64,000 bases of DNA, taken from contig MHLM01000006.1 of the NCBI GenBank assembly GCA_001821395.1, positions 9,733 to 73,732 on the forward strand. Direction: 5' to 3'. The translations under genes and the position numbers were made by a program. The notes under the pieces are model-generated. The model did no database searches, had not been told where the DNA came from, and saw only the letters and a program-made list of their open reading frames with translations. The DNA comes from Candidatus Lloydbacteria bacterium RIFCSPHIGHO2_02_FULL_50_18 (lineage in GTDB: Bacteria; Patescibacteriota; Minisyncoccia; Phycocordibacterales; UBA6899). Of this stretch, positions 1-11,686 are shown one piece after another. The stretch's first letter is position 1; each line of letters starts with the position of its first letter.

Positions 1-2264
1 TCCCATATTTTACTTAAAACCGAGTAGTCCGCAGCATAGGCATCTCGTTTCTCGTCGGTATTTAAACAATCCTGAGCTAGCAAAAGGCCTTCATAGCCCA
101 CCACAGATCGGTCGATGCCATGAAAATGACCGAGGCAAGTATTAACTGCTCCCTGAAGCTCATTTTTTAACTCGTTGAGATTTGTGATTACATACCGAAC
201 ACTGGCATCGTCAAACTCGAGAGCTTTTGCAACATCATCGAATACGCCAAAATAATCCACGACTAATCCGTATGCCTTATCTTTATATACACGATTAGTG
301 CGGCAAATGGCCTGTAGAAGGTTGTGATCTTTTAGCGCCTTGTCGAGATACATACACTGGAGAATCGGCGCATCAAACCCTGTAAGTAATTTAGCAGTAA
401 CGATCAAAAACTTAAGAGGATGCTCAGGATCCCGGAAGTTGTCGAGAAGTTTTTCCTGGTCTTCCTTGCTCATCTCATACTTCTGCTTAAGCATGGTGTC
501 TGTTTCGCCCTTGCCGCCCGTTGAGATGACCACCGCACTTGCTTCCGGAGGTAAAATCTTATCAAGTTCTTGCTTATAGAGGTCACAGGCGTATCTGTCA
601 GGAGTTACGATTTGGGCCTTAAAGCCCTGCGAATCAATTTTTTCTTGAAAATGTTTTACAACATCTTTAACGATTGTCTCAATGCGAGCAGGAGATTTAA
701 GAAAAGCAGACATCTTTGCCGCTTCCTTTACCAAGCTCGTTCGATCGTCTTCTGAAAGATGTTCTGTCATCTGGTCGAATTCAGCATCAATCAAGTCTCT
801 GTCAACGTGAACATTCAATAGGCGCGGTTCGAAGTGCAGAGGGAGTGTTGCCTTGTCGCGAATTGAATCCTGAAAAGTATATCGGGTCATGTAACCCTGA
901 TCATCTTCTTCGGCACCAAATGCCCAGAACGTGTTTCTTTCTGTTTTGTTGATAGGGGTACCAGTCAGACCAAATAGGAATGCGTTCGGCAGGGCATCGC
1001 GCATTTTACGACCAAGATCACCCTCTTGTGTGCGATGAGCCTCATCTACCAAGACAATGATGTTTTCTCGTTCATTAAGCACGCCTCCAGCCTCAGCAAA
1101 TTTAAAAATGGTAGTTATAATAATCTTTCTCGTATCCTTGTTTAAGAGATCGTGGAGTTCTGATCGTTTATCTGTTGACACAACATTTGGTATCTCTGTT
1201 GCGTTGAAAGTTCCTGTAATTTGAGTATCCAAATCGACTCGATCAACCACAACGAGAACGGTGGGGCTTTTTAATTCTTGAGATCGACGGAGCTTCTGCG
1301 CTGCAAATACCATCAATAGTGACTTACCAGATCCTTGAAAATGCCAAATGAGTCCCTTCTTCGGCCTACCCGCCTTTACGCGCTCAATGATCAGGTTTGC
1401 GCCCTCCATCTGTTGGTAGCGGGCTATTATTTTTATCCGCTGCTTTCGCTTGTCTGTCGCAAAGAGCGTGAAGTTTTGAAGCAAGTCCAAAACAACTCCT
1501 GGATCAAGTGCTCCGGAAATCGCTTGTTTAATTTCAGAAAGACCCGCAATGGCACCTTTTGAGTCACGCCAAGGCCCCCACAACTCGAGCGGCATACGAA
1601 TTGAGCCGTAACGGAATGTTTTACCCTCGGTTGCAAACGAAAACACATTTGGAACAAATAGTTGCGGGATTGTATTTTCGTAATCGTCGTGAATATCGAT
1701 CGCGCCGTCGAGCCAAGAAATAGAGGGGCGCACGGGTGTCTTAAATTCTCCCACGACGAGCGGAATTCCATTAACCAACATCACCAAATCGGGACGTTTC
1801 TCAGCCTTGCCTTGAACGGTGTACTGATTTGTGACAATGTATGTATTTTTCCCCAAGCTATCGAAATCAATAAAACTGATCGAAACGTGCTCATTATTTT
1901 CGCCAAACGGCATTGTCTTGTCACCACGGAGCCACGCAGAAAATTCTTCGTTCGCTCTAACGAGACCGGATGTTCCGACCGAGAGAAAGATCGCTCGTAT
2001 TTTATATAAAACTTCGTCGGCTTTATTGGGGTCAGCTGCAATATCCGGATTAAGACGAATCAGAGCGTCTTTTAATAGCGACTCAACGATTGCATCTTTG
2101 GCTTCGCGCTTGAGTTGAGAGGAGGGAACGTATTGCCACTTCAAACCAGGGTGAAAAGCACTATCTGGGGCAAGATAGTTTGAATCCTGCATAAGCTCCG
2201 GGCTTATGCCGGTAAGTTCGTTCAAGATAAAGTGTTCGGTTGTATTTATTTCGTTAAATTTCAT
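1..2264 (-). CDS. hsdR: Type I restriction endonuclease R subunit HsdR (partial; C-terminus lies beyond window start)
   Basis: Manual minus-strand translation from ATG at 2264 (ATGA overlap with hsdS stop) stays open to nt 1. N-terminus MKFNEINTTEHFILNELTG. Helicase motifs WHFQGSGKS (Walker A), IVLVDEAHRTQ (DEAH), GLTGTP, QAICRTNR (motif VI). Frame checked at several points. Missing from the supplied ORF track only because no stop codon falls inside the window. Confidence 0.8.
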   Translation of the reverse strand, partial: MKFNEINTTEHFILNELTGISPELMQDSNYLAPDSAFHPGLKWQYVPSSQLKREAKDAIVESLLKDALIRLNPDIAADPNKADEVLYKIRAIFLSVGTSGLVRANEEFSAWLRGDKTMPFGENNEHVSISFIDFDSLGKNTYIVTNQYTVQGKAEKRPDLVMLVNGIPLVVGEFKTPVRPSISWLDGAIDIHDDYENTIPQLFVPNVFSFATEGKTFRYGSIRMPLELWGPWRDSKGAIAGLSEIKQAISGALDPGVVLDLLQNFTLFATDKRKQRIKIIARYQQMEGANLIIERVKAGRPKKGLIWHFQGSGKSLLMVFAAQKLRRSQELKSPTVLVVVDRVDLDTQITGTFNATEIPNVVSTDKRSELHDLLNKDTRKIIITTIFKFAEAGGVLNERENIIVLVDEAHRTQEGDLGRKMRDALPNAFLFGLTGTPINKTERNTFWAFGAEEDDQGYMTRYTFQDSIRDKATLPLHFEPRLLNVHVDRDLIDAEFDQMTEHLSEDDRTSLVKEAAKMSAFLKSPARIETIVKDVVKHFQEKIDSQGFKAQIVTPDRYACDLYKQELDKILPPEASAVVISTGGKGETDTMLKQKYEMSKEDQEKLLDNFRDPEHPLKFLIVTAKLLTGFDAPILQCMYLDKALKDHNLLQAICRTNRVYKDKAYGLVVDYFGVFDDVAKALEFDDASVRYVITNLNELKNELQGAVNTCLGHFHGIDRSVVGYEGLLLAQDCLNTDEKRDAYAADYSVLSKIW

Positions 2265-3406
2265 GTAATTACTTGAGTGAGGATTGCGTTTCGCATCGCC
2301 CTCGTTAGTTCGATAGAATTTTGCAACTGCTTCTTGATCTCCGTAAGTTGAGCAAGGTTCCTGAGAATATCTTTTTGCTTCTCGAGAGTAGGAACATAGA
2401 TTTTATACTCGGAAACAATCTTATGAGATATGCGAGGCATCTTTGTCCCAAACCCCAGGGAAACAGCATAGTGAATGAAACCATCAGAGTGTAGGTGGTG
2501 GAGAACGTATTCAATGTCTATATCAGGCGTTGCATCATACACAAGCAATTCCGTTGTACAGACTCCATCAAATGATGGAATAACAGCCTTATCCAAATTG
2601 GGGCGTAGCTTGCTATAGAGCAATTGCCCGCTTTTGAAGACGTTGCAAGAGGACTGTGATTGTTGAGCGTCGCCATAAGCATCTACATTAAACGACCCTG
2701 GTTCAATATGCTCCAAACCTAAGTATTTCTCAAGTTTGTGTGGCGGAGCACTCTTCATCTTTGAAAGTTTTAAACATTCGCCTAGTTTTTTCCTGTCTAG
2801 TTTATTCTTAGTGAGTTCAGCAAAAATTGTCTTGAGTGTCAAATTTATTTTGTCCGCCGCGATTCTGTATTTCTCTTCCAATTGATCTGACGCTATCAAA
2901 AGACCCAGTATTTTCTTCTGTACCTGACGGGGTGGCAGAAGAAATTTCTGTTGCGCAAGAATTTTCCATTTAATGGTCGGTGAAAGTGAGCCTTCAGAGA
3001 TATCTATCGCCCGATTCATAAATGCGTCAGAATGCATAAAGAATGGAAGAAAATCTGGTTCAATATGGGATGAATCTGCGCGGACGACCATCGCATGTGC
3101 GGAGCAAATTCCATCAAACTCTGCTATGGAGGCTTTTCTCTGGTATGCACGCCGTTTCCCAAAGATTATGTCCCCTTTATATACACGAAGCTTGACGCCT
3201 TTTACATCAGACGGCACGCCGAATCGACGGATGTGAATAGAGTCGGAATCTAGATGTTCAAGACCAACATAAATATCGGCATCGGAACTGTTCGGGTCAA
3301 CCCTTTCAGAGATATTCTTCGCTATATCACCAAACTTAGCCAACTCCCAATCGGAGCGGTTATGTTTAACGAAAATATTTTCAGCTTGTTTATTAAGAGT
3401 TTTCAT
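2261..3406 (-). CDS. hsdS: Type I R-M specificity subunit HsdS (two TRD halves)
   Basis: 381-aa ORF between hsdM and hsdR. 14-nt overlap with hsdM and 4-nt ATGA overlap with hsdR. Two variable halves, each followed by a helical conserved spacer (..SDQLEEKYRIAADKINLTLKTIFAEL.. and ..LEKQKDILRNLAQLTEIKKQLQNSIELTRAM..). Confidence 0.75.
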   Translation of the reverse strand: MKTLNKQAENIFVKHNRSDWELAKFGDIAKNISERVDPNSSDADIYVGLEHLDSDSIHIRRFGVPSDVKGVKLRVYKGDIIFGKRRAYQRKASIAEFDGICSAHAMVVRADSSHIEPDFLPFFMHSDAFMNRAIDISEGSLSPTIKWKILAQQKFLLPPRQVQKKILGLLIASDQLEEKYRIAADKINLTLKTIFAELTKNKLDRKKLGECLKLSKMKSAPPHKLEKYLGLEHIEPGSFNVDAYGDAQQSQSSCNVFKSGQLLYSKLRPNLDKAVIPSFDGVCTTELLVYDATPDIDIEYVLHHLHSDGFIHYAVSLGFGTKMPRISHKIVSEYKIYVPTLEKQKDILRNLAQLTEIKKQLQNSIELTRAMRNAILTQVIT

Positions 3407-4880
3407 ATGTTTTTTTGTCTAACATCTCTAAGAGAGATCGGGATCCCCTTTTTAGGTCAGAACTATTCTGAGACCATTCCTCTACTACCACTCGGAGTCC
3501 TTTTTCTTTAATACCATTCCCTTGAGTAGATATGTAGAGCGGAATATTAAGATTTGCGTTATTGTTGAGGATATTTTGATTGTCGATCACTTTCGTAAAA
3601 TTTGGTATATCAATAAATTCCTTAAATGCTGCATGAATTCTTTCAACATGTGGATCTTCAAGAAAAGAAAAAGCATTCTGCCGCGTTACTTCTTTAACAG
3701 CATTTATAAAAAGTACTCTACCTTTTCGTTCTTTAGGTTTGTCCCAACGGCAAACCAACAAGCAGGCCTCCATGGGTGAGTTGTAAAATAGATTTGGGCC
3801 CAAACCGATGACTGCTTCGATTACGTCATCCTTTAGCATTTTTTCTCTGAACTCCCGCTCAGAATCACGAAAGAGAACCCCGTGAGGCCAAAGGACAATG
3901 CTCCGGCCGTTTTTCTTGTCTAGGCTTTTGAGAATATGCTGCTCAAAAGCATAGTCTGCACATCCTTGTGGAGGGGTGCCGTAAATGTTTCTCCCGTAAG
4001 GATCATTCGTCCACGCATCTCGATTCCACCTCTTAACTGAATACGGCGGGTTCGCAAGGATGACGTCGAAGGTTTTAAGTTTGTCGTCCTCCAAAAACTT
4101 TGGGCTAGACAATGTGTCTCCACGCTCAATATGAAAGTCCTCGATTCCATGAAGAAACATGTTCATTCGCGCGATGGAGGATGTCATCAGATTCAACTCT
4201 TGCCCATAGAGCTTAAGCGTTCGGTATTCTTTACTCTGGTCCTTAAGTTGGTTTACGCAGTTCAGTAATAACCCACCAGAACCACAAGTTGGATCGTATA
4301 CGCTCTCACCTGGCTGGGGGTTCATTATCAAGCTCATTAAACGAACGACCGTACGATTGGTGTAGAACTCAGCAGCTGTATGCCCACTATCATCTGCAAA
4401 CTTCTTGATAAGGAATTCATATGCATTACCAAGTTCGTCATTGGGAACATTGGCAATGCTTAGGTCTTGTTCAGAAAAATGTTCGAGTAGGTCTATTAGA
4501 ATCTCGTCAGATAGACGACTCTTGTTTGTCCAAGAGGCGTCGCCAAAAATACCGAATAAACGATCCTCGTTCGTCTTTTCAATTTTGCGGAGCGCCTTCT
4601 GTAGGGCATCCCCCACATTAACCGTCACCTGTCGAACATCATTCCAGTGTGCCCCTTTGGGAATTTGGAATCTATGATTTTCATCAAATTTTGCATATTC
4701 TTTGTCGCCCCCCGATTCATTGAGTGCCCGCTCGTATTCTTCTTTGTAGACATCACAGATGCGCTTATAAAATAATAAGGGGAAAATATATTGCTTGTAG
4801 TCTCCAGCATCAATGACACCACGAAGAAGTGTCGCCGCTCCCCAAAGATATCTTTCCAGTTCTTGTTTTTTAATAGCCAT
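3393..4880 (-). CDS. hsdM: Type I R-M N6-adenine DNA methyltransferase HsdM (copy 1, NPPY type)
   Basis: 495 aa. HsdM N-domain FPLLFYKRICD. AdoMet motif VYDPTCGSGGLLL. Catalytic motif ANPPYS. Confidence 0.9.
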   Translation of the reverse strand: MAIKKQELERYLWGAATLLRGVIDAGDYKQYIFPLLFYKRICDVYKEEYERALNESGGDKEYAKFDENHRFQIPKGAHWNDVRQVTVNVGDALQKALRKIEKTNEDRLFGIFGDASWTNKSRLSDEILIDLLEHFSEQDLSIANVPNDELGNAYEFLIKKFADDSGHTAAEFYTNRTVVRLMSLIMNPQPGESVYDPTCGSGGLLLNCVNQLKDQSKEYRTLKLYGQELNLMTSSIARMNMFLHGIEDFHIERGDTLSSPKFLEDDKLKTFDVILANPPYSVKRWNRDAWTNDPYGRNIYGTPPQGCADYAFEQHILKSLDKKNGRSIVLWPHGVLFRDSEREFREKMLKDDVIEAVIGLGPNLFYNSPMEACLLVCRWDKPKERKGRVLFINAVKEVTRQNAFSFLEDPHVERIHAAFKEFIDIPNFTKVIDNQNILNNNANLNIPLYISTQGNGIKEKGLRVVVEEWSQNSSDLKRGSRSLLEMLDKKTYENS

Positions 4881-4881
4881 A

Positions 4882-6369
4882 CTATTTTGATATCAGAGAA
4901 AACCCATCTAAGAGTCTTTTGAGTTCTGTCTCAGCCTCCCATACCTCCTCGAGAGAATTCTTCAACTCTTTCGTGGCCTCTTCTACTGACGGGAGTGTCT
5001 TACCTGAAATCTTTTCAATATAAAGAGAAATATTTAGGCTCCAATCATTTGCCGCAATGTCTTTGAGGGTTGCCACCACGGCGTGGTCTTTAACACCCTT
5101 GAACGCAGAGTACCAGTCGAAAATCTGATCAACATGCCTCTGCTCAAGATAATTTTGAGCACGATCCACGCGCACCTGGTCTGATGCGTCTATAAACAAA
5201 ACCTTACCTTCTTTGTTGTCAGGCTTATTAGCACGAAATACTAAAATGCATGCGGCAACTGTTGCTCCATAGAAGATATTAGGCCCAAGTCCTATCACTG
5301 CTTCAAGCGCATCTGTCTCTATTATTTTCTTTCTTATTTGTCCTTCTCGACCCTTGCGAAATAGTGCGCCATGAGGAAGAACCACGGCTATGCGTCCGCG
5401 AGGATAAGACATGGATTTGATCATGTGTTGCACCCACGCGTAATCTCCATAACCAGCTGGTGGTACCCCTGCAAAATTTCTACCGTATGGGTCCTGAATC
5501 CAAAGGTCATCACCCCACTTCTTTAGGGAGAAGGGTGGATTAGCAATAACGCAATCAAAGGTCGAAAGTTGATCGCCTTCATAGTATGCGGGACTTCGTA
5601 ATGTATCTCCACGCTGAATTTGGAAGTCCTGAACATCGTGGAGGAACATGTTCATGCGAGCAATGGATGAAGTGGTGAGGTTTTTTTCCTGTCCAAATAT
5701 TTTTAGAGTGCGGGCGTCCTTACCATGAGAGCGTAGGTGCTCAACACAATTGAGTAGCATGCCTCCCGTACCACAGGCTGGGTCATATACAGTCTCACCT
5801 TCTTTTGGATCAATTATACGGCCCATGAGCTGAACAACTGTTCTCGGTGTATAAAACTCCCCCGCTTTCTTGTTTGTTAAATCAGCAAACTTTTTTATGA
5901 GGTATTCGTATGCCTGACCGAGCATGTCGAGGTCGACCGTTCCGTTTGCCAGCTTGTATTCAGAAAAATGTTCAATAAGTTCCACCAATAAGCTGTCGGG
6001 CAACTTCTCCTTGTTGGTCCATTGTGCATCTCCAAAGATCCCATACAGAAAATCAGGATTGGCTTTTTCAATTTCACGAAATGCATACTGAAGCTTTGCT
6101 CCAACATTCTTTGTGGTGGCGCGCACATCTGCCCAATGACATCCATCAGGAATTATAAATCTATGGAATTCTGGCAAAACTGCGTAACCCTCATCGCCCT
6201 TAGATTCTTCTAATAGCTTTTTATATTCATCATCATAAACATCTGAAAGTCGTTTAAAAAACAGGAGTGGAAAAACATATACCTTAAAATCAGCAGCATC
6301 AACTGGCCCCTTGAGTATCCATGCGGCTTGAGCGAGATGTTGTTCGAGTTGTGGGAGTGTCAATTTCAT
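4882..6369 (-). CDS. hsdM: Second divergent HsdM paralogue (copy 2, NPPF type)
   Basis: 495 aa, colinear with copy 1. Shared blocks GIFGDAxWTNK, EYLIKKFAD, VYDPACGTGGMLL, SSIARMNMFLH, ANPPFS, LPHGALFR, EAVIGLGPNIFY. Roughly half the residues are identical by eye. 1-nt gap to copy 1. Confidence 0.9.
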   Translation of the reverse strand: MKLTLPQLEQHLAQAAWILKGPVDAADFKVYVFPLLFFKRLSDVYDDEYKKLLEESKGDEGYAVLPEFHRFIIPDGCHWADVRATTKNVGAKLQYAFREIEKANPDFLYGIFGDAQWTNKEKLPDSLLVELIEHFSEYKLANGTVDLDMLGQAYEYLIKKFADLTNKKAGEFYTPRTVVQLMGRIIDPKEGETVYDPACGTGGMLLNCVEHLRSHGKDARTLKIFGQEKNLTTSSIARMNMFLHDVQDFQIQRGDTLRSPAYYEGDQLSTFDCVIANPPFSLKKWGDDLWIQDPYGRNFAGVPPAGYGDYAWVQHMIKSMSYPRGRIAVVLPHGALFRKGREGQIRKKIIETDALEAVIGLGPNIFYGATVAACILVFRANKPDNKEGKVLFIDASDQVRVDRAQNYLEQRHVDQIFDWYSAFKGVKDHAVVATLKDIAANDWSLNISLYIEKISGKTLPSVEEATKELKNSLEEVWEAETELKRLLDGFSLISK

Positions 6370-6599
6370 TTTGGTGACGATGTCAGCTTTTCAACGGTAG
6401 TCCCCAGAGCTGTGGCAATTTTTACCATCGTTGCCACTCGGGGATCAGGAGTGAGTCCGCTCTCAATCTTCGCAATGGTGTGATAATCAAGGCCGGTTTT
6501 CGTAACCAGCTTGCTCTTAGACAATCGCTTTTCATTTCTAATTTTTCTCAAGTTTCCTGCGATATTTGAGAATTTTTTTGGGTGAGATTTCTTTTTCAT
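6366..6599 (-). CDS. XRE-family helix-turn-helix transcriptional regulator (first gene of the R-M operon; C-protein-like position)
   Basis: 77 aa. HTH_3 signature ..LSKSKLVTKTGLDYHTIAKIESG... 4-nt overlap with downstream hsdM copy 2. Divergent from the recombinase gene. Confidence 0.7.
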   Translation of the reverse strand: MKKKSHPKKFSNIAGNLRKIRNEKRLSKSKLVTKTGLDYHTIAKIESGLTPDPRVATMVKIATALGTTVEKLTSSPK

Positions 6600-6756
6600 A
6601 CGACAACCTTGCTTAGCATAATTATACCAAATTTATTGAGTTTTTGCTGCAATAAAAAGTGGATAAAAATAGGGCTATTTGAGGGATGGTTACCAACAGC
6701 TTACCAACTGACCCTCCCTGGACTCCCTGGGAGGGTTGCGTCATCAATTGGTGTGT

Positions 6757-8112
6757 ATGAAAAATACAAACCCGCTAGAGGGCTCTGACGAGCCGAAAAT
6801 TAAGTACTGTTTATACGCTAGAAAATCGAGCGAATCGGACGAGCAGCAAGCCCTTTCGATCGACTCCCAAGCCAAGGAGATGCTCCAGCTGGCGCAACGA
6901 GAGGGGCTTGATGTGGTCGACATCAAGCGCGAGTCGCACTCCGCAAAAAGCACCGGGCAACGCCCGGTCTTCAATGAGCTGATCAGCGACCTCAAGGAGG
7001 GCAAGTTTAATGCCATTCTCGCATGGCATCCGGATCGCTTAAGCAGAAATGCAGGCGACCTCGGTGCTATCGTCGACCTGATGGACGAGCACCGACTTAT
7101 CGAAGTGAGAACCTTTGGTCAAAAGTTTACAAATAGTCCAAGCGAGAAGTTTCTACTCATGATTCTATGCTCGCAAGCAAAGCTTGAGAACGACAACAAG
7201 GGCGTGAACGTGAAGCGGGGGCTACGAGCAAAAGTTGAGATGGGACTATGGCCATGCGTTGCACCGACCGGATACATCAACGACCGCATGCCTGGGCGTG
7301 CAGGATATGTGCTCGTCGACCCGGTGCGTGCTCCGATTATCAAGCAAATATTTGAAAAGGTCGGCAATGACCGATGGAGCGCTAGGACGGTTTATAAATG
7401 GATGGTCAAAGAAGGAAAGTTCAATAGCGTGAGAAAAGGAAATAAGGCACTCACCCTGAGCACAATCTATCGACTTCTGCATCAGCCTTTCTATTCGGGA
7501 ACATTCGAGTACCCCACCGGGAGCGGTAACTGGTACAAAGGTCAACATGAGCCACTCGTTTCCAAGGAACTCTTCGAGAAGGTGCAGCAAAAAATAGCGG
7601 AGGAGTTGAAGTCAAAGAAACAATATCAAGAATTCACCTTCACGAACCTTATGCTCTGCGGATACTGTGGGTCAGGTATTACCGCACAATCAAAAGACAA
7701 AAATCTCAAAGATGGGAGCGTCAAAAGTTACACCTACTACAACTGCACGCACAACAAGGATCACTTCTGCAAAAACCCGTTCATTCGCGAAGAAGAACTT
7801 CTCAAACAGATCGATGAGATCTTCGACAAGATCGATATCGACGAACTTGGAACACGGCATATCATTGAAAGAGAGGTTGCGCGATACAACAACATTCGGG
7901 CAAAACTCCTCGGCGCAAAAGAAAATGACAAAGCACTCGACGTCGACGTGCGAAACTATGCCAAGTACATGCTCAAAGAAGGCACGATGCTCGAAAAACG
8001 CGAACTCCTAGGGTGCCTAAAAAATAGAATTATTCTGAAGGATAAAACGATAACGCTTGAAAAAAGTTTGCAAATTAATGACTTAACGCCACAAACACAG
8101 ATAGCACGCTGA
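6757..8112 (+). CDS. Large serine recombinase (resolvase/invertase catalytic domain + recombinase domain + zinc-ribbon)
   Basis: Catalytic region KYCLYARKSSESDEQQALSIDSQ (Ser nucleophile context). Later AWHPDRLSRN. Cys cluster CGYCGS...YNCTHN. The track ORF starts at 6736; ATG 6757 (MKNTNP..) is more likely. Confidence 0.85.
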   Translation: MKNTNPLEGSDEPKIKYCLYARKSSESDEQQALSIDSQAKEMLQLAQREGLDVVDIKRESHSAKSTGQRPVFNELISDLKEGKFNAILAWHPDRLSRNAGDLGAIVDLMDEHRLIEVRTFGQKFTNSPSEKFLLMILCSQAKLENDNKGVNVKRGLRAKVEMGLWPCVAPTGYINDRMPGRAGYVLVDPVRAPIIKQIFEKVGNDRWSARTVYKWMVKEGKFNSVRKGNKALTLSTIYRLLHQPFYSGTFEYPTGSGNWYKGQHEPLVSKELFEKVQQKIAEELKSKKQYQEFTFTNLMLCGYCGSGITAQSKDKNLKDGSVKSYTYYNCTHNKDHFCKNPFIREEELLKQIDEIFDKIDIDELGTRHIIEREVARYNNIRAKLLGAKENDKALDVDVRNYAKYMLKEGTMLEKRELLGCLKNRIILKDKTITLEKSLQINDLTPQTQIAR

Positions 8113-8440
8113 GGATGACGAGTATCTTCACCCCACCTCCATACACAATCCAAGTAAATAATTTTTTTGCAGCAAGCATAACTATTCCGAGCACCAGAAT
8201 GGAAACTCCAACGCCCGTGAGTGGGTCGTGCAATCCTTTCATAGGAGCATGAGTCCAAACAAAAAATATACCTACGACAACCATAAGCCGCGCAATTATG
8301 TTAAACCAGCTTATGGAATCTTCGTGGCCAAAAGGAGCACCTCCTATGCCAACTTTCTTAGCAAAGAAGACACGAGTTACTGCTCCGGCAACACTTGCGA
8401 TAACACGAATTACTAACTGTTGGAAAAAACTCCCATCCAT
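8075..8440 (-). CDS. Small polytopic membrane protein (about 4 TM helices), last gene of the Ubl operon; candidate effector
   Basis: 121 aa. Hydrophobic segments LVIRVIASVAGAVTRVFFA, IIARLMVVVGIFFVW, GVGVSILVLGIVMLAA, VKILVILSVLSVFVALS. Start 1 nt after the JAB-E1 stop codon. Confidence 0.5.
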   Translation of the reverse strand: MDGSFFQQLVIRVIASVAGAVTRVFFAKKVGIGGAPFGHEDSISWFNIIARLMVVVGIFFVWTHAPMKGLHDPLTGVGVSILVLGIVMLAAKKLFTWIVYGGGVKILVILSVLSVFVALSH

Positions 8441-8441
8441 A

Positions 8442-9833
8442 CTATTTTAAGTTCTCATCAAAAACTTGATAACTATCATCATTTGAGTCTCCTTTTCCGG
8501 TAAATTCTGAGAATGGGCAATTTGGCAAGCAGTCTTCACCGAGTTTTCTTTCCAGCTCCCCGGTAACAAAATGGTATAGATTTTCACCGTGATGACTTAT
8601 GCCGTTGGGTTTTACTACAAGTGCCAACATCTGTAGCACCATCATTGAGGCGAGGTGCATGCTAAAAGCAAAAACGTTTTGATTGTTCAAGTGATGGCGC
8701 AAACCGTCAACGGTGTTTATGTACTCCGAATCATCCAGCAGACCTTTGCGTTCAAGAGACACTTCAGCAAAGGTGTACTGCCCAATGCACGAGAGACATT
8801 TATTACCCGGGGTTGCAGTGTGCGCACGCCAATCCGCTGAGCGCAACAAATCCTCCTTGGTGTGCACTCGAATACCACCATCAACGACTGGAATCAGGTG
8901 TGTATAAGCAATGTAATTAAGAACGTGGCGCGCCCACGGCCTATCAACGCAACTGAACAGGAGGTCACAATTTAGTGCACCTCGGTATCCCTCAGCTCCA
9001 GTTACATGAACTGGTAATCGTGTGACGAAAAAGTTGTCGGCAGTTGCGTGTTCAATAAGTCTTTTTGCAATTACATCCGTCTTCAATTCACCAACATCTT
9101 TTATCGTCGCATGCATAAGTCGATCGAGGTTGTGTTTCTTTACTACGTCAAAATCGATAAGCGAAATATGCTGAACTCCAGTTCTAGCAAGTGCCTCAGC
9201 AATAGCACTTCCGACACTTCCCGTGCCGACTATTCCTATGTGTAAACGAGATAATTCGTCTTGCTTATCTTGACCCCATGAAGAAATTGTACGTTTCAGT
9301 TCTTCTCTAAAACCCTGCGGCTTAAGCAGCGCGTCACAATAGGTGATAGAAAGGCCCATTTGACCTATAGTGCGAACACTCTCGCACCATGATGGAGCAT
9401 ATTCCCGAACCCCGGTTCTATTCCAAAAACGAGCACTCCACGCACCATCTGTGCCTATAGTTAGTCCAAGGAGGGGTCGTTCTGTTATTCCAAAGGTTGC
9501 CGCAGCGTGCGATAACTCCGCCCGAACATCGGTCCTGCTCATATTCTGCCATCCAGGAAACGGGTGGCTATGCATAAAAGCAAGGCCCATATCTCGGGCG
9601 GATGCTATTTGTAGTGCTCTCTGAAAATACTCGGGAGAAAAACTCGCGTTGCCATGCACTTCCCGCTCTCCGTCTTCAGGAAGAATCGGTTCAACCAAGA
9701 GTGCTGTCAGTCTTTCTCCTCCGCTGCTCGGCTGCCACAAAGCAAAACATAAGTCTTCCTGCCCATCCTTACGCACAAGATGAGAAAAGAGTTTCTGGTT
9801 TACCTCGGTTGTCATCGCTACGCTGTATCTCAT
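8442..9833 (-). CDS. JAB/MPN metallopeptidase fused to E1-like ThiF/MoeB adenylyltransferase
   Basis: N-terminal JAMM motif AFMHSHPFPGWQNMSRTD (HxH..S..D). C-terminal Rossmann/E1 motif GIVGTGSVGSAIAEALARTGVQHISLIDFDVVKKHNLDRL and Cys-containing CLSCIGQ. 4-nt overlap with the upstream gene. Confidence 0.8.
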   Translation of the reverse strand: MRYSVAMTTEVNQKLFSHLVRKDGQEDLCFALWQPSSGGERLTALLVEPILPEDGEREVHGNASFSPEYFQRALQIASARDMGLAFMHSHPFPGWQNMSRTDVRAELSHAAATFGITERPLLGLTIGTDGAWSARFWNRTGVREYAPSWCESVRTIGQMGLSITYCDALLKPQGFREELKRTISSWGQDKQDELSRLHIGIVGTGSVGSAIAEALARTGVQHISLIDFDVVKKHNLDRLMHATIKDVGELKTDVIAKRLIEHATADNFFVTRLPVHVTGAEGYRGALNCDLLFSCVDRPWARHVLNYIAYTHLIPVVDGGIRVHTKEDLLRSADWRAHTATPGNKCLSCIGQYTFAEVSLERKGLLDDSEYINTVDGLRHHLNNQNVFAFSMHLASMMVLQMLALVVKPNGISHHGENLYHFVTGELERKLGEDCLPNCPFSEFTGKGDSNDDSYQVFDENLK

Positions 9834-10192
9834 AGTGTGTTGAGGAGTTTTATAACGTGAGCAAGGTAAACATCGACGTTACGTTTACTACTTTCCCAGC
9901 TCGGGTGCGGCCTACTAAGATGCATCCACTCAGGGCCAAAATCACTGTCGTGAATTCGATCACGATGCTCCTGTGATGAGGTGTTGGTGGGCAACGTACG
10001 CGGATGAATATGTGGGCCGTGGGGAGCAGTCAGCTCAAAGTCTCCTGGGACATCTACCCCAACGCGAACTGTCTTGCCTGCAAGAGTTCCTTCGTTGACA
10101 GACAGCGCAAATGCCAGCCGATTGCCTTCAAGGTTTTCAACCTCAAAACCAAGATTCTTGAGACCTTGAATAAATTTTTCTTTGCCGCTCAT
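9830..10192 (-). CDS. UBC/UEV-like protein lacking any cysteine (putative non-catalytic E2 variant; identity uncertain)
   Basis: 120 aa. Segment VRVGVDVPGDFELTAPHGPHIHP resembles the UBC beta-meander plus HPN-motif region. No Cys anywhere in the protein. Starts 6 nt after the Ubl stop. Confidence 0.45.
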   Translation of the reverse strand: MSGKEKFIQGLKNLGFEVENLEGNRLAFALSVNEGTLAGKTVRVGVDVPGDFELTAPHGPHIHPRTLPTNTSSQEHRDRIHDSDFGPEWMHLSRPHPSWESSKRNVDVYLAHVIKLLNTL

Positions 10193-10197
10193 GTTGT

Positions 10198-10452
10198 TTA
10201 CCCCACAGGCGTTTGTCCAGTAAACACCGTGACGAACTTCATGTGATTATGCATCTTGATCACCTCGTCCAAATCTTTATGCGGTTCCTGCTGATGACCC
10301 TTAACCTCAACCAAATAGTACTGCTGCGAATCGACATTCGCCATTGATAATATCTCTCGAACAGACAACTCCTTCTTTTCAGTAGTGAGTGTTTCACCGT
10401 CGACCGTAAAATCGATACCGTGACCTTTTTCCTCCTTCTCGTGGTTTTCCAT
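10198..10452 (-). CDS. ThiS/MoaD-like ubiquitin-like beta-grasp protein ending in ...TPVG-COOH
   Basis: 84 aa. Beta-grasp pattern IDFTVDGETLTTEKKELSVREIL ... KFVTVFTGQTPVG followed by stop TAA. No C-terminal extension after the terminal Gly. Confidence 0.6.
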   Translation of the reverse strand: MENHEKEEKGHGIDFTVDGETLTTEKKELSVREILSMANVDSQQYYLVEVKGHQQEPHKDLDEVIKMHNHMKFVTVFTGQTPVG

Positions 10453-10501
10453 ACAGTTTTTTTATATAATTAATGAATTAACACATGAACCAATATTCCT
10501 C

Positions 10502-10530
10502 TTGACTCTGGACGAGAGTCGCGGTAACCT
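10502..10530 (+). promoter_or_regulatory. Putative promoter of the HTH gene (TTGACT-17-TAACCT) with embedded operator palindrome GACTCTGGACGAGAGTC
   Basis: Read directly. -35 at 10502-10507, -10 at 10525-10530. Palindrome 10504-10520. A second near-palindrome TGTTTCACTAGTCAAACA at 10562-10579. Confidence 0.35.
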
Positions 10531-10591
10531 GTTTCATATGTAAGACAGTGTACACCTGAGGTGTTTCACTAGTCAAACACTTTTTTCATTT

Positions 10592-10942
10592 ATGAAACAC
10601 AATAAAAACAGCGTCAATTTTGCTATTGAGCAATTGGGTCAGAAGGTCGCGCTTAAAAGATCGGGAAGCGGGATGAGAGATACCTCCGCAGAGATTGGCA
10701 TCAGCCCTGCTACCCTCTCGCGAATCGAGAGGGGGTACATGCCCGATATCGGCACATTCCAAAAAGTATGCACTTGGCTCAACATTGATCCGGGTGAAAT
10801 TCTTGGTGCAAAAACTCACGTCAGTGAGGTGCAGATGGCAACTGTGCATTTTCGTAAGAAGCAAACGGTTGCTCCGGAAACCGCGCAAGCTTTAGCACAA
10901 CTCATTATTGCAGTACAAAATAATGTTCTCGCATCAGAGTAA
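10592..10942 (+). CDS. XRE-family HTH regulator (CapH-like), divergent from the Ubl operon
   Basis: 116 aa. HTH ..DTSAEIGISPATLSRIERGYMPD.. Confidence 0.8.
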   Translation: MKHNKNSVNFAIEQLGQKVALKRSGSGMRDTSAEIGISPATLSRIERGYMPDIGTFQKVCTWLNIDPGEILGAKTHVSEVQMATVHFRKKQTVAPETAQALAQLIIAVQNNVLASE

Positions 10943-10960
10943 AAAACTGATTATGTTGTC

Positions 10961-11539
10961 ATGTTTAAAAAAGGATTTAAAACCTGGTGTGAAAGAGCTT
11001 CAATTAGTACTCGCAGACAACTGGGTCTGCAATCTTTCGATCCGATAGACTTATACAAGGTCGCGGCAATCGTCGAGGCTGATATTAAGTATCCAAAAGA
11101 TGTTCCTGGGCTTGATAAAAAGTTTTTAAAAATTTTAACGGAGGAGGACCCAGATAGCTGGTCTGCAATAACCATAAAAATAAAACAGAAAATCGTTATT
11201 ATTCTAAACTCTGCCCACACCAAAGCGCGTCAGATGAGTAGTCTTGGTCATGAGTTATCTCATTTGATTATCGGACACCCTGCGTCCAAAACTGGTATTT
11301 CAGCAGATGGGCTTTTGATAACTGGGTTCGATCGACTTCAAGAGGATGAGGCGGGATGGCTTTCGGGGTGTCTTCTTTTGCCCCATGATGCGTGTCAGTA
11401 TATTAAAAAGACAAAGATGGACCAAAGCAGTGCTCAACGACATTACGGAATAAGCGCTGATATGTATACATATCGCATGAACGCCTCTGGGGTAAATCGC
11501 TTGTGGACCCCTAAAGTAAGTAGCATTAAAGCGAAGTAA
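10961..11539 (+). CDS. ImmA/IrrE-family zinc metallopeptidase (CapP-like)
   Basis: 192 aa. VIILNSAHTKARQMSSLGHELSHLIIGH (HExxH in ImmA context). Follows the HTH gene with 18-nt spacing. Confidence 0.8.
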   Translation: MFKKGFKTWCERASISTRRQLGLQSFDPIDLYKVAAIVEADIKYPKDVPGLDKKFLKILTEEDPDSWSAITIKIKQKIVIILNSAHTKARQMSSLGHELSHLIIGHPASKTGISADGLLITGFDRLQEDEAGWLSGCLLLPHDACQYIKKTKMDQSSAQRHYGISADMYTYRMNASGVNRLWTPKVSSIKAK

Positions 11540-11613
11540 CGACCTATCAGGTCTAGAACCTTTAATGCCAAAAAGCGACCCTTCTGGGTCGCCTCTTGGG
11601 TCTCTGCGTCGGG

Positions 11614-11686
11614 GGTGCCTATAGGGAATCGAACCCTAGCTAAAGGCTCCACAAGCCTCTGTGCTAACCGCTACACCATAGGCACC
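11614..11686 (-). tRNA. tRNA-His (anticodon GUG) with encoded G-1 and C73
   Basis: Manual fold of the reverse complement GGTGCCTATGGTGTAGCGGTTAGCACAGAGGCTTGTGGAGCCTTTAGCTAGGGTTCGATTCCCTATAGGCACC. Acceptor GTGCCTA/TAGGCAC. G-1 pairs with C73. Anticodon loop TTGTGGA. T-loop TTCGATT. Confidence 0.85.

Follow-up and report, generated by a model that had tools for sequence, protein, structure and literature searches.

The stretch analysed here (64,000 nucleotides of Candidatus Lloydbacteria bacterium RIFCSPHIGHO2_02_FULL_50_18, contig MHLM01000006.1, positions 9,733 to 73,732; "the window") carries an operon for the conjugation of a ubiquitin-like protein (Ubl), which ends in a small gene for a membrane protein whose only detectable relatives belong to a single lineage. 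Our comparisons identify it as a genuine gene and as a fourth, translationally coupled cistron of the operon. It is an optional add-on and not the core effector of the system, since the core of the family consists of three genes. Of several possible roles we favour that of a membrane docking partner for JAB-E1, the enzyme encoded immediately upstream, and we do so tentatively, with a probability of about one in three.

The four genes of the operon lie on the minus strand in the order Ubl, E2-like protein, JAB-E1 and membrane protein, and are separated by a 5-nt gap, a 4-nt overlap and a 1-nt gap, respectively:

10198–10452, minus strand: single beta-grasp Ubl of 84 aa, with ...TPVG right before the stop codon (Pfam Multi_ubiq; homologues in 62 loci)
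9830–10192, minus strand: E2-like protein of 120 aa without catalytic cysteine, Prok-E2_E/BubB-like (Pfam matches of its family; alignment to BubB)
8442–9833, minus strand: JAB/JAMM peptidase fused to a ThiF-type E1, BubCD-like, 463 aa (JAB-E1; Pfam ThiF 2.7e-30; BubCD in the PDB)
8075–8440, minus strand: orphan polytopic membrane protein of 121 aa, the last cistron of the operon (open reading frame, hydropathy, AlphaFold2 helices, substitution pattern)

The open reading frame (ORF) for the membrane protein begins with an ATG at 8438–8440 and comprises 121 codons, and a single nucleotide (8441) separates this ATG from the stop codon of JAB-E1 (8442–8444). A preliminary description of the window had placed a hydrophobic protein of this size 1 nt after the JAB-E1 stop, at the end of the Ubl operon, and both the existence of the gene and its position are borne out. 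Three diverged copies were compared: that of the window, that of the metagenome-assembled genome (MAG) GFS_1518 (L001, identical to L002), and that of an ENA contig (L007). Each has exactly 121 codons and an open frame without indels, with 23–35 substitutions between the copies and 89–95% amino acid identity. The ratio of non-synonymous to synonymous substitution rates (dN/dS) is 0.10–0.27 in frame, compared with 0.11 for JAB-E1, and 0.9–5 in four of the five alternative frames. The fifth, an antisense frame, has a dN/dS of 0.14–0.32, as expected because its third codon positions coincide with those of the gene. Replacements are conservative, and all lysines and arginines are kept. Because length is preserved and dN/dS is low across the three copies, we regard the ORF as a genuine protein-coding gene.

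A Kyte-Doolittle hydropathy scan (19-residue window, threshold 1.6) finds four hydrophobic segments in the product, at residues 9–27, 43–61, 73–91 and 101–119. Segments 2–4 combine strong hydrophobicity with a low moment and are plainly membrane-spanning; segment 1 is amphipathic (hydrophobic moment 0.51, mean hydrophobicity 0.48) and contains R12 and R23. The "four hydrophobic helices" of the preliminary description therefore hold as four segments, but the protein may have three transmembrane (TM) helices and an N-terminal amphipathic helix instead of four TM helices. Clusters of positive charge are formed by K28/K29 and K92/K93, and two topologies appear compatible with the protein, one with four TM helices and both termini outside (N-out/C-out), the other with three TM helices after a cytoplasmic amphipathic helix. 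AlphaFold2, run on the single sequence, predicts helices at 3–30, 42–64 and 73–120 (mean predicted local distance difference test score, pLDDT, 74.7; predicted template modelling score, pTM, 0.45). A soluble domain is absent and the C-terminus is hydrophobic (...FVALSH); the predicted product is small and almost wholly embedded in the membrane.

JAB-E1 and the membrane-protein gene are not separated by a terminator-like site. The 1-nt spacing, the lack of a Shine-Dalgarno-like sequence ahead of the ATG and the lack of a convincing promoter of its own (the sole promoter-like site near the ATG is no better than chance) tie the expression of the membrane protein to that of JAB-E1. The G+C content at third codon positions (GC3) of the gene is 0.39, which is like that of JAB-E1 (0.42), the E2-like protein (0.44) and CapP (0.39) and unlike that of the neighbouring recombinase (0.57) or the host genes (0.50–0.61), and this argues for a history shared with the operon. 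We conclude from the sequence that the gene is the fourth, translationally coupled cistron of the Ubl operon. The regulatory region upstream of the operon comprises the following elements:

10547–10580, minus strand: promoter-like site TTGACT-18-TACACT (10576–10547) and an overlapping palindrome of 10+10 nt (10561–10580), both recognised by consensus matches only
10592–10942, plus strand: CapH-like helix-turn-helix (HTH) repressor, divergent from the operon (Pfam HTH_3 3e-8)
10961–11539, plus strand: CapP-like M78 metallopeptidase (Pfam Peptidase_M78 2.8e-9; PADLOC capP 1.4e-8)

The palindrome, GTGTTTCACT/AGTCAAACAC, overlaps the -35 element of the promoter-like site and is a candidate CapH operator; an additional GTGTTTCA copy is found nearby, at 10593–10600. 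A divergent HTH and M78 pair immediately upstream is common to most related loci: a CapP homologue is found upstream in 43 of the 62 loci that extend far enough in this direction, and HTH neighbours are present in 24+11 homologous loci. Homologues of the CapH/CapP pair are reported to de-repress on DNA damage or phage infection. Expression of the membrane protein would depend on de-repression by this pair and on ribosomes that terminate at JAB-E1.

The homology searches for the membrane protein were nearly empty. A word-indexed search of 5.8 billion proteins matched just two near-identical proteins, and an exhaustive phmmer search of 1.84 billion representative proteins found the protein's own cluster and nothing else. 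There was no match in Pfam, PADLOC, PHROGs or NCBIfam, and the comparison of the AlphaFold2 model with the PDB by Foldseek gave generic helical matches alone, with E-values of at least 0.95. By these searches the protein is an orphan, restricted to the 4.9-kb block that carries the operon. A holin was considered and rejected, as the C-terminus is hydrophobic where a holin has a charged tail, the block has no endolysin or other lysis genes, PHROGs gives no match and the family is absent from viral contigs. The gene was also considered as a frameshifted tail of JAB-E1, and this was rejected too: read-through in the JAB-E1 frame stops after 27 codons and does not resemble the tail consensus of the family.

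JAB-E1 has more than 3,300 homologues at E <= 1e-10. The related loci that we gathered (3 genome loci, 80 metagenome loci and 5 further contigs) carry JAB-E1 homologues with 42–59% identity, and the 75 non-redundant loci that continue for 400 nt or more 3' of JAB-E1 formed the downstream test set. Ubl and E2 constitute the conserved neighbourhood of JAB-E1 (66 loci). Clustering of the ORFs 3' of JAB-E1 in the related loci gave no conserved fourth gene, and clustering of the upstream ORFs gave no conserved extra gene. The preliminary description had proposed a survey of homologous loci for conservation of the TM gene, and the answer is almost entirely negative, with no fourth gene shared among the 75 operons. 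A Pfam scan of 92 ORFs 3' of JAB-E1 returned a mixture that includes N6_Mtase, SMODS, DUF3892, HNH, a type ISP domain, subtilase and NADAR. A same-strand ORF starting between -20 and +40 nt from the JAB-E1 stop is present in 28 of the 75 loci, and such ORFs have two or more hydrophobic segments only in the window lineage, in L016 and in L074. A borderline case is L076, where a 112-aa ORF (6420–6758) overlaps the JAB-E1 stop by 4 nt. L074 and L076 are possible further examples of membrane ORFs at this position. As the family core is three genes, the membrane protein of the window is an optional add-on that the family can do without.

The docking role that we favour would operate as follows. De-repression by CapH/CapP, if these act as their homologues do, would turn on the operon, and ribosomes ending JAB-E1 would re-initiate 1 nt downstream, so that production of the membrane protein keeps pace with that of JAB-E1. 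The membrane protein would then dock JAB-E1 at the cytoplasmic membrane, presenting a cytoplasmic face that consists of amphipathic helix 1, the Gly-rich loop 27–42 and two lysine pairs, K28/K29 and K92/K93. This would steer the conjugation of Ubl towards targets close to the membrane, perhaps with modification of the docking protein as well. Coupled synthesis of this kind is typical of the subunits of one complex, and we rank docking first for this reason and because one JAB-E1 homologue provides a hint of the Rosetta-stone type. This homologue (P0086; L093 1092–2669) is encoded in an ordinary operon of Ubl, E2 and JAB-E1, and its C-terminus is a fused, strongly hydrophobic TM anchor (Kyte-Doolittle 3.0) with the sequence ...YVWWIIIVGLIILLILFFVTRF. 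Kinship between this anchor and the membrane protein of the window was considered and rejected, as the two show no sequence relation.

Two further observations point in the same direction. A striking parallel is seen only in L016, where CapH/CapP, Ubl, E2 and JAB-E1 are followed by a 136-aa ORF with three TM segments that begins 1 nt past the stop codon. It is an orphan too, with no detectable relation to the membrane protein of the window (a hydrophobic stretch of 17 residues aligns at E 0.054). In most JAB-E1 homologues the C-terminus is a conserved basic, Trp/Arg-rich tail of 40–55 aa with the shared start G-x-x-V-T-G-R/K-H-x-x-A-E. After the GD motif, the JAB-E1 of the window has only 14 acidic residues and that of L016 has 12, and both are without the basic tail, for which the membrane protein might stand in. 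In P0086 the TM anchor occupies the place of this tail.

Several facts weigh against docking. Short JAB-E1 tails occur in about 16 further loci without a TM gene, so that replacement of the tail does not hold generally. A fused TM anchor is a rarity, seen in 1–2 of 120 homologues, and the window protein, L016 and P0086 share no sequence relation in their TM segments. The membrane protein is missing from about 70 of the 75 homologous operons and from that of the closest relative (L088, with a JAB-E1 that is 59% identical), where a convergent hydrophilic gene directly follows the JAB-E1 stop. Some 20–25% of bacterial genes encode membrane proteins, and the 3–4 membrane ORFs among 75 loci are not above this background, so that the family shows no statistical affinity for membrane partners. 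Finally, the interaction between the membrane protein and JAB-E1 is itself one that we infer.

The preliminary description had seen in the protein a candidate membrane effector or sensor of the operon. As an abortive-infection effector, it would be induced, perhaps modified by Ubl on its cytoplasmic lysines, and would oligomerise and depolarise or permeabilise the membrane, halting phage replication. Its polytopic nature, the polar stripes on helices 1 and 2 (Q8, R12, S16, R23; N47, R51), an expression that would occur only under CapH/CapP control and the presence of a type I restriction-modification (RM) system on the same island are in keeping with this. Small polytopic membrane proteins are found in defence operons as lambda RexB and as effectors of CBASS (Cap14/Cap15-type) and Pycsar, and the window protein, with three to four hydrophobic helices, resembles these small effectors in size and in the number of TM segments. 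Those effectors, however, possess either an activating partner or a ligand-binding domain fused to them, and they are conserved components of the systems to which they belong, whereas the window protein has no fused sensor or other soluble sensor domain, no homology to them, and no conserved association with an activating module. The absence of any PADLOC, PHROGs, Pfam or NCBIfam family and of a fold match also argues against an effector, as does the fact that nearly all homologous operons lack the protein and evidently work without a membrane effector. In other loci the downstream slot is occupied by unrelated, mostly self-contained defence genes and not by alternative effectors of one logic. 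With no homologue outside its own cluster, and with the gene absent from the nearest relative, the proposed effector or sensor role is unsupported; it is weakly kept alive by L016, possibly by L074 and L076, and by the fused anchor of P0086. We consider an effector possible but rather doubtful.

We would also call it rather unlikely that the gene is a passenger of the mobile block, co-transcribed with the operon but separate in function, for example a protein of the superinfection-exclusion type or a stress-induced membrane toxin that aids retention of the block. An orphan, small and hydrophobic protein, encoded between the two modules of a 4.9-kb mobile block by a gene that overlaps the 3' end of the recombinase gene, would suit such a role; the slot after JAB-E1 is taken by unrelated genes in other loci, and the frequency of membrane ORFs in this slot does not exceed the background. 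The features that tie expression to JAB-E1 (the 1-nt spacing, with neither a Shine-Dalgarno-like sequence nor a convincing promoter) speak against a mere passenger, and so does a GC3 that fits the operon and not the recombinase. If the gene were a passenger, the core of this branch would be three genes with CapH/CapP, and the position after JAB-E1 would be a variable slot.

The protein might instead be a dedicated substrate, with Ubl attached to K28/K29 or K92/K93 so as to mark the membrane. Two Lys-Lys pairs, unchanged among the three copies, are predicted to face the cytoplasm, and the targets of Bub systems, the known systems closest to this operon, are not established (PMC11601596). The protein is missing from the rest of the family, however, and at 5–11% divergence the conservation of lysines is uninformative, so a substrate role seems quite unlikely to us. 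Least probable is a functionless young ORF, or an artefact of annotation between the JAB-E1 and recombinase genes, since the lack of homologues in all searches and the T-rich second codon positions (0.48), which readily yield hydrophobic ORFs, are outweighed by purifying selection as strong as on JAB-E1 and by a frame that stayed intact in three copies, with conservative replacements, despite their substitutions.

The operon itself is most readily compared with Type I Bub (6E.1) operons, which encode BubAB (a Ubl-E2 fusion), BubCD (JAB-E1) and BubE (DUF6527), are often associated with CapH/CapP and reside in mobile elements at tRNA genes; their biological role and their targets are not established (PMC11601596). 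The closest PDB match of JAB-E1 is Citrobacter BubCD (2e-23 by sequence, 6e-40 by family profile), and the profile alignment covers residues 6–382 and thus both the JAB and the E1 domain, though the similarity is only distant. Among 28 homologues the JAMM residues E26, H88, H90, S99 and D102 are invariant, as is Y371; in the profile alignment Y370 of BubCD, the catalytic tyrosine on its E1 crossover loop, falls a few positions C-terminal to Y371, within a loop that aligns poorly. The only invariant cysteines in this set are C295, C346, C349, C435 and C439, located in the SCVD core motif and in two CxxC pairs.

The E2-like protein of the window by itself has no Pfam match, and Prok-E2_E is matched by 31 of 39 members of its family. 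In these 39 sequences S93 is invariant within a W-S-R-P motif and there is no conserved cysteine. The sole PDB match of the family profile, a weak one (E 0.12), is Citrobacter BubB, with WSR aligned to the WSRH of BubB. Like Type I Bub of Citrobacter, the window has a Prok-E2_E-type E2 with an invariant serine and without catalytic cysteine, in addition to CapH/CapP regulators and a mobile block at a tRNA gene. The Ubl matches Pfam Multi_ubiq at 1.3e-4, which is under the gathering score.

There are also clear differences. In Type I Bub the Ubl is fused to the E2 and released by the JAB domain, whereas in the window the two are separate genes, with a stop codon and a 5-nt gap between them, and the Ubl already ends in glycine. 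Ubl-E2 fusions do occur in 7 of about 60 related loci. No DUF6527/BubE was found by Pfam among the block proteins or among the 92 ORFs 3' of JAB-E1, that is, neither in the window block nor in the 75 related loci. The orphan membrane protein after JAB-E1 is a further difference from Type I Bub. As Ubl and E2 are unfused and BubE is lacking, we assign the operon to a Bub-related branch and see in it a relative of Type I Bub (6E), not Type I Bub proper. This branch is large and probably covered in general terms by the Pfam families Prok-E2_E and Multi_ubiq; no description of it was found in the Bub papers searched, in which operons were chosen by DUF6527.

The C-terminus of the Ubl differs between loci. 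Those of related loci mostly end in ...P-V-S, with about 36 loci showing a C-terminal serine (e.g. L016 4365–4631) and about 16 having 1–5 residues beyond this serine. E1 substrates do not usually carry Ser instead of Gly at the C-terminus, and within the family ...PVG is the Ubl ending of the window lineage alone.

A membrane connection has been suggested for Bub-type conjugation before: BubE of canonical operons is proposed to attach to membranes via hydrophobic extensions (PMC11601596), which is a likeness to the case described here and favours a docking role. BubE, however, is a soluble beta-sandwich serine protease with extensions that are not predicted to be transmembrane, whereas the window protein lacks a soluble domain and is unrelated in sequence. 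One might go further and propose that the cytoplasmic membrane is where Bub-type systems without BubE act, with Ubl conjugation wired, in the present case, to a dedicated membrane protein that would be either a Ubl-gated permeabilising effector or a tether for E1. We think this unlikely. If true, the orphan TM gene, its analogue in L016, the TM-anchored P0086 and the basic Trp/Arg-rich tails would be four versions of one membrane-targeting requirement, which would point to the location of the targets of Bub systems. In any case, a membrane protein coupled to an E1 offers an experimental handle on whether such systems work at the membrane.

Type II CBASS (Cap2/Cap3) and Bil share with the window an E1/E2/JAB chemistry in defence islands, but the window block has no cGAS/DncV-like nucleotidyltransferase (CD-NTase) and a different operon layout. 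PADLOC E1-E2 models do match the adenylation domain of JAB-E1, in the ThiF core only. In three related loci a SMODS-type nucleotidyltransferase lies right 3' of JAB-E1 (L026 6428–7246, L048 5992–6876 and L054 6503–7387; Pfam SMODS, best 1.5e-24), and in L085 a nucleotidyltransferase-like ORF (2923–3519) starts 5 nt past the JAB-E1 stop. These may represent a CBASS-like link or mere neighbours within a defence island. The sole recurrent small downstream gene, besides that of the window lineage, codes for a DUF3892 protein of 96–97 aa, found +16 to +28 nt after JAB-E1 (L010 5872–6165, L031 2052–2342, L033 6474–6764 and L086 6043–6330). In the ORF of L076 mentioned above, hydrophobic helices at the N-terminus are joined to a C4 zinc ribbon of the topoisomerase type (3e-4 with NCBIfam topoisomerase I models).

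The operon and its regulators are part of a block next to a tRNA gene:

6701–11637: 4.94-kb block with recombinase, membrane protein, JAB-E1, E2, Ubl, CapH and CapP (blastn; gene content of L001)
6736–8112, plus strand: large serine recombinase (Pfam Resolvase, Recombinase, Zn_ribbon_recom)
11611–11686, minus strand: tRNA-His(GTG) (ARAGORN), with its 3' part as the right edge of the block (blastn boundary 11637)

By blastn, the block has 91.6% DNA identity with MAG GFS_1518 (L001 6804–11740), compared with just 65–71% for the flanking chromosomal genes (SpoVR, Cob_adeno_trans), and every copy of the membrane protein has been co-inherited within this one 91.6%-identical block. The genes for the recombinase and the membrane protein are convergent, and the former extends 38 nt into the 3' end of the latter. 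Cargo past the recombinase differs, being an XRE-type regulator with a type I RM system in the window and a ResIII/helicase protein in the MAG. The block resembles a mobile defence cassette of very small size, placed at tRNA-His. The tRNA-His region has no second copy in the window that would represent attachment-site (att) repeats, as expected because the enzyme is a serine recombinase. A phage origin was considered and rejected, as JAB-E1 relatives are absent from 2.9 million viral contigs.

The type I RM module of the window (2261–6599) has tandem HsdM paralogues at 3393–4880 and 4882–6369, each of exactly 495 aa, one HsdS (2261–3406) and a small XRE gene (6366–6599); no long ORF fit for HsdR is visible in window positions 1–2260. 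In L001 the recombinase is broken into two ORFs (153 and 302 aa) and is probably decaying. The same locus (positions 4009–4083 and 6780–6830) has a 2.7-kb insert between tRNA-His and the block, encoding a 341-aa protein, His_Phos_1 and NUDIX, and on the block side a degenerate 3' part of the tRNA is retained together with the same terminator-like hairpin, which suggests that this tRNA was a target of insertion a second time.

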